This document shows positions 20,120 to 23,396 of a stretch of DNA of 39,342 bases, in pieces (positions within the stretch are counted from its first letter, which is position 1; each line of letters opens with the position of its first letter). Made by a program: the position numbers and the translations under genes. The notes below the pieces were generated by a model. That model was not told the origin of the DNA. It did no database searches and saw nothing but the letters and a program-made list of their open reading frames with translations. Origin of the DNA: Escherichia phage HC12; sequence record OL362275.1, one strand, 5' to 3'.

Positions 20120-21004
20120 ATGTCTCAATCAGTTTATGCCGAGTTCGGCGTTAGCTCTAATGCAATCACTGGTTCCGTTGAGGACCTGAACGAACACCAG
20201 AAGTCTATGCTTGAACAGGACGTAGCTGTTCGTGATGGCGATGACGCTATTACCTTCAAGCAACTGGAAGCCGAAAACGAAGAGGCGACAGAAGAAGACG
20301 AGAACGTCGAAGAGACTGAGGGTGATGAAGACAACGAGTCCGATGACGAAGAGTCTGAGACCGATGGTGAACAACCTGAGTTCGTCGAACTTGGTGATGC
20401 ACCTAAAGAGCTGACCGAAAGTGTCACAGCTCTGGATGAAAACGAAGCTGCATTTGACGACATGGTGTCTTCTGCTGTAGAAGCTGGCAAGGTCACTGCT
20501 GATGAAATTACCGCTATCAAGGCTGAATACGCCAAGGACGGTAAGCTGTCTGACGCATCCTACGCTAAGTTGCAGGAAGCAGGTTACACCAAGCGCTTCG
20601 TAGATTCGTTTGTCCGTGGTCAGGAAGCTCTGGCTGAACAGTATGCCGCTGGTGTGGTTCGCTACGCTGGTGGTGCTGAACAGTTTAATCGCATCCTGTC
20701 ACACCTTGAGTCCAACGACCCGTCAACTCGTGAAGCACTGGAAGCTGCTATCGTTCGTAAGGACATTGCTACTACCAAAGCTCTGCTGAATCTGGCTGGC
20801 AAGACTCTGGGTAAAGCTGTGGGTGTTAAACCTCAGCGTACCATCACCACTCAGGCTAAACCTGTGGTCGCACCTAAGGCTCCTCAGACCGAAGCATTCA
20901 GCTCCAAGGCTGACATGATTAAGGCTATGAGTGACCCGCGATACCTGCGTGACGCTAAATACACGATGGAAGTTCGCGCTAAGGTAGCTGCCTCAAGCCT
21001 GTAG
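20120..21004 (+). CDS. 9: Capsid assembly (scaffolding) protein
   Basis: Acidic protein. N-terminus MSQSVYAEFGVSS...SMLEQDVAVRDGDDAI aligns with T7 gp9. AAGGAG RBS; the track start at 20081 is GTG inside the hairpin. Confidence 0.93.
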   Translation: MSQSVYAEFGVSSNAITGSVEDLNEHQKSMLEQDVAVRDGDDAITFKQLEAENEEATEEDENVEETEGDEDNESDDEESETDGEQPEFVELGDAPKELTESVTALDENEAAFDDMVSSAVEAGKVTADEITAIKAEYAKDGKLSDASYAKLQEAGYTKRFVDSFVRGQEALAEQYAAGVVRYAGGAEQFNRILSHLESNDPSTREALEAAIVRKDIATTKALLNLAGKTLGKAVGVKPQRTITTQAKPVVAPKAPQTEAFSSKADMIKAMSDPRYLRDAKYTMEVRAKVAASSL

Positions 21005-21005
21005 G

Positions 21006-21028
21006 ACTAAACTATCACTATAGGGAGA
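21006..21028 (+). promoter_or_regulatory. Phage RNA polymerase promoter (phi10-like), full consensus ending GGGAGA
   Basis: ACTAAACTATCACTATAGGGAGA, best copy of the family, upstream of the major capsid gene. Confidence 0.8.
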
Positions 21029-21130
21029 CCAAGAGAAAGACTCAAGGTTTCCCTATTACTTCAGTCCATACGGATTGGGCGTACAGCAAGTAATAAACTT
21101 TATCTTTCAATTGAATAGGAGAATTATCAT

Positions 21131-22180
21131 ATGGCAAACGTTCCGGGTCAGAAAGTTGGTACAGACCAAGGTAAAGGCAAATCTGGTTCCGACGCTCTGG
21201 CGTTGTTCCTGAAGGTCTTTGCTGGCGAAGTCCTGACAGCATTCACTCGCCGCTCTGTAACTGCTGACAAGCATATTGTCCGTACCATTCAGAACGGTAA
21301 GTCTGCTCAGTTCCCGGTCATGGGTCGCACCTCTGGTGTGTATCTGGCTCCGGGTGAGCGACTGTCCGATAAGCGTAAAGGTATCAAACATACCGAGAAA
21401 GTGATTACCATTGATGGTCTGCTGACTGCCGATGTGATGATTTTCGACATTGAAGACGCGATGAACCACTATGACGTGGCTGGCGAGTACTCCAACCAGT
21501 TGGGCGAAGCTCTGGCTATCGCTGCCGATGGTGCGGTACTGGCTGAGATGGCTATTCTGTGTAACCTACCGGCTGCATCTGATGAAAACATCGCTGGTCT
21601 TGGCAAAGCGTCTGTGCTGGAAGTTGGTACTAAAGCAGACCTGAACACTCCGGCTAAGCTGGGTGAAGCAATCATCGGTCAACTGACCATTGCTCGTGCG
21701 AAGCTGACATCCAACTACGTTCCTGCTGGCGACCGTTACTTCTACACCACGCCGGACAACTACTCTGCAATCCTCGCGGCTCTGATGCCGAACGCTGCTA
21801 ACTATGCTGCGCTGATTGACCCAGAGACTGGTAACATCCGTAACGTAATGGGCTTCGTGGTTGTTGAAGTCCCACACTTGACTCAGGGTGGTGCTGGGGA
21901 AACTCGTGGTGCCGATGGTATCACTATTGCGACTGGTCAGAAGCACGCCTTCCCAGCTACTGCTACTGGTGATGTTAAAGTTGCTCTGGACAACGTTGTG
22001 GGCCTGTTCTCTCACCGTTCTGCTGTAGGTACTGTTAAGCTGCGTGACTTGGCGCTGGAACGTGACCGTGACGTCGATGCTCAGGGCGACCTGATTGTTG
22101 GTAAGTACGCTATGGGTCACGGTGGTCTGCGTCCAGAAGCAGCAGGCGCACTGGTTTTCAGCCCAGCAGCAGCGGGTTAA
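21131..22180 (+). CDS. 10A: Major capsid protein
   Basis: 349 aa, colinear with T7 gp10A: LALFLKVFAGEVLTAF, HTEKVITIDGLLTADV, MPNAANYAALIDPE, KLRDLALER, AMGHGGLRPEAAG. Confidence 0.97.
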   Translation: MANVPGQKVGTDQGKGKSGSDALALFLKVFAGEVLTAFTRRSVTADKHIVRTIQNGKSAQFPVMGRTSGVYLAPGERLSDKRKGIKHTEKVITIDGLLTADVMIFDIEDAMNHYDVAGEYSNQLGEALAIAADGAVLAEMAILCNLPAASDENIAGLGKASVLEVGTKADLNTPAKLGEAIIGQLTIARAKLTSNYVPAGDRYFYTTPDNYSAILAALMPNAANYAALIDPETGNIRNVMGFVVVEVPHLTQGGAGETRGADGITIATGQKHAFPATATGDVKVALDNVVGLFSHRSAVGTVKLRDLALERDRDVDAQGDLIVGKYAMGHGGLRPEAAGALVFSPAAAG

Positions 22181-22443
22181 TGACCTTCAGGACTCTCTCT
22201 ACTGAGGGTCCTACCTTTGAAACCTTGGAGTCCTCAGTTGGTGTCAGTCTTAAGGTTGACTTCCCTGAGCTGGCAGATGTGACCGACTGGTCTCTGCTGG
22301 ATGTAACCATGCCGGATGGTGTGAGCTACTCTCGTAGAACTTCAAGTCTCTACTTCAAGGCCACCGATGCTGTGACAGGTCTTGTAACTGTTGGATATGA
22401 CGGGTCTACCGTTGGGTCATTCAACGTTTCGTTCACAAACTAA
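21131..22443 (+). CDS. 10B: Minor capsid protein 10B, predicted product of a -1 programmed frameshift near the end of 10A
   Basis: The -1 frame is open from 22105 to 22443 and overlaps the 10A terminus. G GTT TTC at 22153-22159 is the same heptamer as at the T7 10A/10B frameshift site. Confidence 0.5.
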
Positions 22444-22446
22444 TTG

Positions 22447-22487
22447 AAACCCCTTGGGTGCCTTCGGGTGCTTGAGGGGTTTTTTGC
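22447..22487 (+). terminator. Tphi-like intrinsic terminator
   Basis: AACCCCTTGGGTGCC-TTCG-GGTGCTTGAGGGGTT followed by TTTTTTG; close to the T7 Tphi terminator sequence. Confidence 0.85.
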
Positions 22488-22504
22488 TTAAAGTGAGGAT
22501 GATT

Positions 22505-22594
22505 ATGTTTTACTTACTTACAGCCTTGGGACTATTTGTTAGTTTCTGGGCGATTATATTATTAACCGGACCATGCAGTCCTTACGACAGATAG
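22505..22594 (+). CDS. Hypothetical small hydrophobic peptide (29 aa) downstream of Tphi
   Basis: GTGAGGA RBS 6 nt before ATG. Hand translation MFYLLTALGLFVSFWAIILLTGPCSPYDR. Under 60 aa, so absent from the track. Confidence 0.4.
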   Translation: MFYLLTALGLFVSFWAIILLTGPCSPYDR

Positions 22595-22602
22595 GAGGGA
22601 GT

Positions 22603-23169
22603 ATGGCTCAATACATTCCACTGAATGCTAACGATGACTTAGACGCTATCAACGATATGTTGGCTGCTATCGGTGAACCAGCAGTCCTACAACTTGACGA
22701 GGGGAACGCTGACGTCTCGAACGCTCAACGCATCCTGCATCGTGTCAATCGTCAGGTCCAAGCTAAAGGCTGGAACTTTAACATCAACGAAGCTGCTGTC
22801 CTGACACCTGATGTCCAAGACAATAGGATTCGATTCTTGCCGTCATACCTTCGCGTAATGACCGCTGGGGCCACCAGCTACTACAGTAACATGGGCGGAT
22901 ACCTGTACGACCTATCCACTCAGTCAACCACTTTCACCGACCCTATCACGGTAGAGCTTGTGGAGATGAAGCCATTCTCCGAGATGCCTGTGGTCTTCAG
23001 GGACTACATCGTTACCAAGGCTAGCCGTGAGTTCAACGCTAAGTTCTTCGGTAGCCCAGAGTCTGAACTGTACCTTCGTGAGCAGGAAGCAGAACTCTAC
23101 CAGCAGGTCATGGAATACGAGATGGATACTGGTCGCTACAACATGATGTCTGACATCGGGAGGGACTAA
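22603..23169 (+). CDS. 11: Tail tubular protein A
   Basis: Colinear with T7 gp11: DDLDAINDMLAAIGEP, RGWNFNI, YIVTKASREFNAKFFGSPE, MEYEMD. Start at ATG 22603 with GGAGGG RBS. Confidence 0.95.
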   Translation: MAQYIPLNANDDLDAINDMLAAIGEPAVLQLDEGNADVSNAQRILHRVNRQVQAKGWNFNINEAAVLTPDVQDNRIRFLPSYLRVMTAGATSYYSNMGGYLYDLSTQSTTFTDPITVELVEMKPFSEMPVVFRDYIVTKASREFNAKFFGSPESELYLREQEAELYQQVMEYEMDTGRYNMMSDIGRD

Positions 23170-23396
23170 TGGCTAGTCACAACCTGAAGATTCACCGCCA
23201 GCACTTTGGTCCGGTACAACTAGGTCTAAAGACAGCAGAGCTGAGACTTAACGACCGGGACTTTAAGGTTGGCGACTGGCTTATCCTGAATGAGTGGGAC
23301 AACGGGTATACTGGACAACAGGTAGCACGTAAGGTTGTCCACATTGCTGACGTTGGTGACATCGCTGAGGGATACGTCCTAATGAGTATGATTTAA
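23169..23396 (+). CDS. Small PUA/ASCH-like protein inserted between genes 11 and 12
   Basis: 75 aa MASHNLKIHRQHFGPVQLGLKTAELRLNDRDFKVGDWLILNEW...; the K.H...F......K..E.R.NDRDF.VGD.L.L.E pattern matches, from memory, small phage PUA-like domain proteins. TAATG coupling to gene 11. Confidence 0.65.
   Translation: MASHNLKIHRQHFGPVQLGLKTAELRLNDRDFKVGDWLILNEWDNGYTGQQVARKVVHIADVGDIAEGYVLMSMI

Follow-up and report, generated by a model that had tools for sequence, protein, structure and literature searches.

The -1 frameshift by which gene 10 of phage T7 yields the capsid proteins 10A and 10B was reportedly described by Condron, Atkins and Gesteland in 1991. The slippery site of T7 gene 10 is G_GU U_UUC, and the terminator, which lies over 200 nt further downstream, contains a CCCC run that is involved in the frameshifting in a way which is unexplained (Atkins 2016 review, PMC5009743). 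In T7, about 10% of the translations shift, whereas the bare heptamer taken out of its context gives less than 1% (Slootweg 2006). The 10B protein of phage T3 carries an Ig-like extension, which is made by -1 frameshifting (PMC5009743), and junction peptides of the 10B protein of the Kluyvera phage Kvp1 have been identified by mass spectrometry, with a -1 shift at TTTTCA (PMC2579914). In phage K1F, 10b has 44 added triplets, and a g10b::gfp construct gave stable, fluorescent and viable phages with an assembled 10B-GFP fusion (PMC6277420).

The stretch of DNA analyzed here (39,342 nt from Escherichia phage HC12, OL362275.1; called the window below) carries a locus which very probably corresponds to the programmed -1 ribosomal frameshift of gene 10A/10B of the T7-family phages, in the genus Kayfunavirus. 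Judging from the sequence, this interpretation was supported in every computational test that might have failed it. The frameshift is real but already known, both in kind and in this phage clade.

The phage and its major capsid gene

The region around the frameshift site shares 99% identity with the Kayfunavirus genomes EcoIv1_Emlis and vB_Eco_ZCEC02, and about 95% with many others, which makes the phage a Kayfunavirus, that is, a K1F-like phage of the T7 family (Autographiviridae, Studiervirinae). The gene hosting the site is the following:

21131..22180, + strand: gene 10A, major capsid protein (349 aa, 36.3 kDa), zero frame, from the list of open reading frames

The 10A stop is the TAA at 22178-22180. 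The encoded protein is a T7-like gp10 major capsid protein: it matches the Pfam family PF21703 (Gp10A-like) with an E-value of 1e-104, the T7 gp10A structures match it with an E-value of 1.6e-145, and its residues 1-346 are matched by the PDB capsid chains 9vvq_I, 7y23_G and 2xvr_A.

The slippery heptamer

22153..22159, + strand: slippery heptamer G GTT TTC, found in the sequence at the 10A codons CTG GTT TTC

22159..22443, + strand: 10B-specific coding part, translated in the -1 frame, 94 codons (QPSSSG...SFTN) plus TAA

The heptamer is in register with the zero frame and precedes the 10A stop by a few codons. As had been claimed, it is that of T7. Its register and the codons which it occupies, towards the 3' end of a homologous capsid gene, are also the same in both phages. 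The original prediction also placed it rightly just upstream of the stop, but the distance was given as 20 nt, and the actual gap amounts to 18 nt, or six codons. Read from 22153, the -1 frame includes 96 sense codons (GFQPSSSGLMTFRTLST...SFNVSFTN) and is closed by the TAA at 22441-22443; the 95 further codons announced earlier are those counted from the F residue. The extension had likewise been expected to end just before the terminator Tphi, and two bases lie between its TAA and a Tphi-like hairpin starting at 22446. In T7, the 10B frame also ends just before Tphi, although the shift site is about 200 nt from the terminator in T7 versus about 290 nt in the window.

Two properties of the locus were dropped as evidence. 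The heptamer GGTTTTC occurs 3 times in the window versus 3.6 times expected, which is not a significant enrichment. As regards the length of the open -1 frame, other stops in the window show similar or longer open frames; these are common because neighbouring genes overlap in this compact genome. The count of heptamers is not above the chance level; the evidence for the site consists in its conservation across relatives.

Conservation of the site

T7, K1F, CR8, two Przondovirus phages and 13 Kayfunavirus loci all have the identical heptamer at this position, read in the same register. Scanning IMG/VR with a profile of the extension yielded 58 further loci with a homologous extension. In all 58, the extension is in the -1 frame relative to 10A and shares 34-88 nt with its end, and this overlap includes NGTTTTC in register, in the form of GGTTTTC (55 loci), CGTTTTC (2 loci) or AGTTTTC (1 locus). 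Among 59 unique sequences, there is no variation at the third positions of GTT and TTC (0 bits of entropy), the four preceding four-fold sites show 0.73-1.51 bits, and the base following the heptamer is A in 58 cases. At the sequence level, the invariant core is therefore best written GUU UUC A. This pattern would fit a slip of the A-site tRNA-Phe from UUC to UUU as the essential event, in which the first G may help but would be dispensable.

One might suppose that no recoding takes place, the Val-Phe pair being kept for the capsid structure, GTT and TTC being preferred codons and the downstream frame being a relic. The residues around the heptamer are indeed conserved at the protein level, and the heptamer is not over-represented in the window. 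This explanation is nevertheless extremely unlikely, since the four-fold Val codon is invariant while the four neighbouring four-fold sites vary, the downstream frame has pN/pS values of 0.2-0.4 and folds into a confidently predicted domain (see below), and mass-spectrometry and GFP-fusion data are available in relatives.

The 10B protein could also be obtained without any shift of the ribosome if the phage RNA polymerase added an extra U at the T4 run in a minority of the mRNAs, which would then carry the extension in frame, because one U inserted in GGUUUUC gives exactly the same protein sequence. T7-type polymerases do slip on homopolymer runs, but efficient slippage normally needs runs much longer than four T's. 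In addition, the unit conserved in the relatives goes beyond a mere run of T's, as it consists of GTTTTC and the following A in a fixed register, and T7 gene 10 is treated as a case of ribosomal frameshifting in the review mentioned above (PMC5009743). Transcriptional slippage is accordingly regarded as highly improbable, and ribosomal frameshifting is the reading retained here.

As to the place of the ribosomal shift, an alternative site at G GGT TAA, beside the stop, was rejected: the GGG is missing from the Przondovirus and CR8 groups and disrupted in one locus (L034). In some loci, as few as three codons lie between the heptamer and the stop, so that the heptamer is the sole candidate shift site there.

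Coding status and start of the -1 frame

In 10 Kayfunavirus-type sequences, the region on the 3' side of the 10A stop shows, when read in the -1 frame, a pN/pS ratio of 0.23, versus about 1.8 (1.77) in the other two frames, and the variable columns at the first, second and third codon positions of the -1 frame number 18, 13 and 53 of 86, respectively. The ratio is also low in the linker (codons 11-30 of the -1 frame), with values of 0.25 in 15 Kayfunavirus-type sequences and 0.35 in 40 Przondovirus-type sequences. The values obtained in the selection test range from 0.23 to 0.37, in the -1 frame only. These ratios indicate that the extension, linker included, is under purifying selection in the -1 frame only, in two diverged groups. 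Selection on the site itself is seen in the invariant third positions of the heptamer. The claim that a conserved frameshift site gives rise to an extended capsid protein is thus backed by the frozen heptamer, by the selection acting on the -1 frame and by annotated relatives.

These relatives are the Escherichia phage Peacock, which belongs to the same genus, the Citrobacter phage CR8, and the Escherichia phage Pisces. All three carry the same heptamer and an extension of the same family, about 76% identical to that of the window in Peacock (74-80% in 12 Kayfunavirus relatives) and 45-46% identical in CR8 and Pisces, and are annotated as having -1 frameshift products in GenBank. The Peacock record joins the CDS by a -1 frameshift, and in the CR8 record 10B bears the mention 'matches in mass spectrometry analysis'. 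No difference in kind was found between these phages and that of the window, which belongs to the same set. In most of the other records of the clade, the tail is listed as a separate hypothetical protein.

That annotation corresponds to a different explanation, in which the 87-codon ORF at 22180-22443 is a small gene of its own, translated by termination-reinitiation at TAATG to give a free 9-kDa protein, without any fusion to the capsid protein. The ATG at 22180 does overlap the TAA at 22178-22180, overlapping stop and start codons are a common coupling motif in phages, and a separate CDS is listed in ZCEC02, the closest annotated relative. However, the overlap occurs only in the window and its nearest relatives, and this ATG is replaced by ACG in most of the relatives with the same extension. 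No Shine-Dalgarno sequence was found for the ATG of the window, and no conserved start codon was found for the extension: an ATG is present before the domain in 10 of the 60 unique loci, scattered over five different codons, and 2 of the 60 have no start codon at all for the extension. The starts chosen by gene callers for this 'protein' are inconsistent, being located at many points, some of which are within the domain. The ORF always reaches back over the heptamer in the -1 frame, which is open from the heptamer onward and has no start signal of its own.

Since there is neither a conserved ATG nor a conserved Shine-Dalgarno sequence, and since the -1 overlap always extends over the heptamer, entry from the capsid frame is the only conserved route to the extension. 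A separate gene is therefore very unlikely, although a free 87-aa product may be made in minor amounts by termination-reinitiation at TAATG in the phage of the window.

Proposed mechanism

With the programmed frameshift, most of the ribosomes would stay in the zero frame on G GUU UUC and reach the stop six codons further on, giving the 10A protein of 349 aa. A minority would slip back by one base on the heptamer, the main event presumably being the re-pairing of the A-site tRNA-Phe from UUC to UUU along with that of the P-site tRNA-Val from GUU to GGU. These shifted ribosomes would translate 94 more codons in the -1 frame up to the stop located just before Tphi, and would thus give a minor capsid protein, 10B, of 437 aa. 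In this protein, the complete shell domain of 10A would be followed by some 20 residues of flexible linker and by an Ig-like beta-sandwich of about 73 residues, exposed on the outer face of the head. By analogy with the phages described above, the slippage is expected to occur at a rate in the per-cent range, and 10B is expected to be assembled into the virions.

Candidate stimulatory elements

The site does not have the features of a canonical -1 cassette of the dnaX/IS3 type. The heptamer departs from a perfect X XXY YYZ in that G GU re-pairs imperfectly, and neither a stimulatory structure at 5-9 nt nor a conserved Shine-Dalgarno-like element upstream is present. A small stem at +2 to +18 (dG -6.5 kcal/mol), tried as the canonical stimulator 5-9 nt downstream, is not kept in the relatives, and the AGG at -10 to -8, tried as an upstream Shine-Dalgarno-like stimulator, rests on a variable third position. 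No family matches were obtained in an Rfam search for an RNA element. Since the bare T7 heptamer gives less than 1%, the rate in the phage of the window depends on further context, and the candidates for raising it are a hairpin situated after the 10A stop and the CCCC run of Tphi:

22189..22212, + strand: RNA hairpin AGGACUCUC-UCUACU-GAGGGUCCU, 9 bp, folding energy dG -14.3 kcal/mol

22446..22485, + strand: Tphi-type intrinsic terminator directly after the 10B stop, 17 bp and six T's, found by a terminator scan

The hairpin is separated from the heptamer by a 29-nt spacer and starts 8 nt past the 10A stop. The 40-nt segment around it ranks 11th of 39302 in terms of stability, and about 1.2% of the 36-nt neighbourhoods in the window reach the stability of this hairpin. 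It is kept in 92% of the alignment cells in the Kayfunavirus group, in which no covariation was detected, as the changes are all one-sided and there are no double changes. Hairpins of different sequences occur at the same place in two other groups. In the CR8 group, the stem is 12 bp long and is capped by a UUCG loop, and the hairpin of the Przondovirus group has 18 bp, paired in 99% of the cells. In the latter case, two adjacent pairs switch from A-U to G-C and from C-G to U-A in 13 and 11 of the 38 sequences, respectively; the covariation score was reached in none of 500 shuffles, and the compensatory changes alter the encoded amino acids. Across the three lineages, the base of the hairpin lies 19-29 nt past the heptamer and 1-9 nt past the 10A stop. 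No hairpin of comparable stability was found in K1F.

Classical stimulators have shorter spacers than these 19-29 nt. The occurrence of three unrelated sequences forming a hairpin at one position tentatively suggests a long-spacer stimulator setting the 10B:10A ratio, which we consider possible rather than probable, and the hairpin may act jointly with the CCCC element of Tphi. If this is so, the hairpin would help to explain why gene 10 frameshifting in T7-type phages relies on a distant 3' sequence, which has long been unexplained.

No other 40-nt fold in the window is as stable as the hairpin of the Tphi terminator, which has a dG of -25.2 kcal/mol. The terminator is unvaried in 10 relatives, and its arms are the same as those of T7 Tphi, including the CCCC run, which is located at 22450-22453 in the window. 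No conserved partner of this run was found near the shift site in the aligned groups: a pairing with the spacer (GGGUU in the window) was rejected because it is not kept across groups. A long-range stem involving columns 29-35 and 100-106 of the Kayfunavirus alignment was set aside as uninformative, since these columns are invariant.

The predicted 10B protein and its extension

The predicted 10B protein consists of residues 1-343 of 10A followed by 94 residues, which amounts to 437 aa and 45.9 kDa, i.e. 9.6 kDa more than 10A. Its tryptic junction peptide is YAMGHGGLRPEAAGALVFQPSSSGLMTFR. A minority of the ribosomes would in this way add an 88-residue surface domain to the capsid protein, and the added domain is probably antibody-like according to the structural model. 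Its two parts are:

22159..22221, + strand: linker of the tail, predicted to be disordered (AlphaFold2 pLDDT about 50, residues 1-22 of the extension)

22222..22440, + strand: C-terminal domain of about 73 residues, seven beta strands, predicted Ig-like beta-sandwich (phrog_7473)

The first 22 nt of the linker are dual-coding with the end of 10A. In the AlphaFold2 model of the extension, built from 30 sequences, 22 disordered residues are followed by a seven-strand beta-sandwich with a pLDDT of about 85, which gives Ig-like fold matches and corresponds to an appended domain with a predicted Ig-like fold. The PDB sequence search yielded no solved structure containing the tail, and no Pfam match was obtained for the extension at E<=1. 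An exhaustive profile search beyond the phage tails gave a few multi-repeat proteins carrying Big_2, Big_1, Big_3 or BACON. The family of the tail is phrog_7473, to which no function is assigned and which is present in about 450 phage records. Its members show 74-97% identity with the tail of the window in Kayfunavirus, and 40-50% in Przondovirus and in Pectobacterium, Dickeya, Serratia and Raoultella phages.

In T3 and phiYeO3-12, a capsid protein of this family likewise acquires about 85-95 residues at its C-terminus through a -1 shift near the 10A stop, and the T3 extension is an Ig-like domain. However, the slippery site of T3 is C CCA AAG, at a Lys codon, instead of G GTT TTC, at a Phe codon, and the T3 domain belongs to the Pfam family Big_2 (E-value 4.7e-10), whereas the domain of the window has no Pfam match. 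Big_2 (PF02368) was thus rejected as the family of the latter, and a profile comparison between the two tails detected no similarity (hhalign probability 0.1); the only link between the window's domain and Big_2 is that of the distant profile hits to multi-repeat proteins which also carry Big_2. As regards Kvp1, the TTTTCA motif is also present in the window, but this phage is T3-like and has a different extension.

The extension of T7 is 58 codons long from the heptamer and Ala/Glu-rich and, according to PMC5009743, is not Ig-like, whereas that of the window has 96 codons, is predicted to fold into a beta-sandwich and has no sequence similarity with it. The tails of T7 and K1F share a TRAAN motif, which is not present in the tail of the window, and the T7/K1F type of tail (motif ...EETLTP.Q.AARTRAAN...) was rejected for the window, as its extension shares nothing with those of T7 and K1F. 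The original prediction omitted this point, namely that the extension is a different module, which the model predicts to be folded, and not a tail of the T7/K1F type.

K1F is the type species of the genus and has the same heptamer. Its 10A DNA is 84-99% identical up to 11 nt past the heptamer, but from that point to the start of gene 11 it is unrelated to the window, and its tail is a short Ala/Glu-rich one of the T7 type, with 50 codons from the heptamer. In this comparison, the tail and the terminator make up a cassette, the exchange of which takes place right at the slip site.

Significance

Since the frameshift is textbook biology for T7-like phages, the main practical value of the present analysis is correct annotation: instead of 10B, most of the records of the clade list a major capsid protein plus an orphan hypothetical protein, the starts of which are inconsistent. 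As to what sets the shift rate, the hairpin with its conserved position offers a lead which is cheap to test. The C-terminus of 10B is a natural site for display and engineering, which has already been used in T7 and K1F. At least three unrelated tails are present on homologous capsid genes, namely the T7/K1F type, the Big_2 type of T3 and the family found in the window (phrog_7473); the tail is a swappable cassette with its recombination boundary at the slip site. In the case of the phages carrying the latter family, an Ig-like domain is predicted to be displayed on a minority of the capsid subunits.

RNA structures around the slip site and gene 10

A stable hairpin was predicted by RNA folding downstream of the slippery heptamer G GTT TTC (22153-22159) in the capsid gene 10A:

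22189-22212, stable hairpin beyond the 10A stop codon

Stable hairpins were also found in the Przondovirus loci (L017 and L018) and in those of the CR8 group (L016, L032, and L036). In these three groups, the hairpin begins 19-29 nt after the heptamer and 1-9 nt past the 10A stop. The three hairpin sequences are mutually unrelated, and yet they share the same position relative to the slip site. The Przondovirus hairpin shows two compensatory base-pair switches, both of which alter the encoded amino acids.

Upstream of gene 10, the phage-polymerase promoter-like sequence ACTATCACTATAGGGAGA occurs at about 21006-21028. The leader downstream of it folds strongly, with the 40 nt at 21018-21057 (MFE -19.6 kcal/mol) ranking fifth in stability in the whole window; the promoter-like sequence and the folded leader together resemble the T7 phi10 leader. 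In stability, the Tphi terminator is followed by three further 40-nt windows, near 20639, 30266, and 18755 (-20 to -21 kcal/mol), the next most stable in the genome.

Heptamer variants and annotation of the 10B tail

The heptamer starts with C or A rather than G in four of the loci compared, which have all retained GTTTTC and the -1 frame tail specific to 10B:

L019, L075, and L079, Dickeya phage JA10 and two IMG/VR loci
L037, Pectobacterium-phage-like locus

Since C or A is tolerated at this position while GTTTTC and the tail persist, these sequences suggest that the re-pairing of the P-site tRNA-Val is dispensable. The tail is annotated inconsistently in the GenBank records of the relatives (PV833354, MT862763, MN715150, and NC_047969, for example): it is labelled either as a separate "hypothetical protein" or as a "minor capsid protein," and the start codon varies between records. 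The name "minor capsid protein" has also been given to proteins of 10A length, in vB_EcoP-U8 (350 aa) and PDB 9vvq (347 aa).

Gene content and exchange downstream of the slip site

Two ORFs were identified in the region of genes 11 and 12, which encode the tail tube proteins:

22496-22594, small ORF between Tphi and gene 11, preceded by GAGGA and encoding the hydrophobic product MIMFYLLTALGLFVSFWAIILLTGPCSPYDR
23169-23396, 75-aa ORF inserted between genes 11 and 12, matching Pfam DUF3850 (E 1.9e-19) and an ASCH domain

The small ORF is missing in most relatives, where the ribosome-binding site of gene 11 lies directly 3' of Tphi. The 131 nt carrying it were found in 14 phage records with at least 99% identity, mostly without any annotation. 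The 75-aa ORF separates genes 11 and 12, whereas these genes abut in K1F.

Although K1F belongs to the same genus, its tail-to-gene-11 stretch differs entirely: from 11 nt past the heptamer to the start of gene 11, the two sequences are unrelated (window 22160-22602 versus 866-1073 of the K1F locus L015), whereas the flanks are 84-99% identical. Based on this comparison, the 10B tail and the terminator behave as an exchangeable cassette, the boundary of which is at the slip site.
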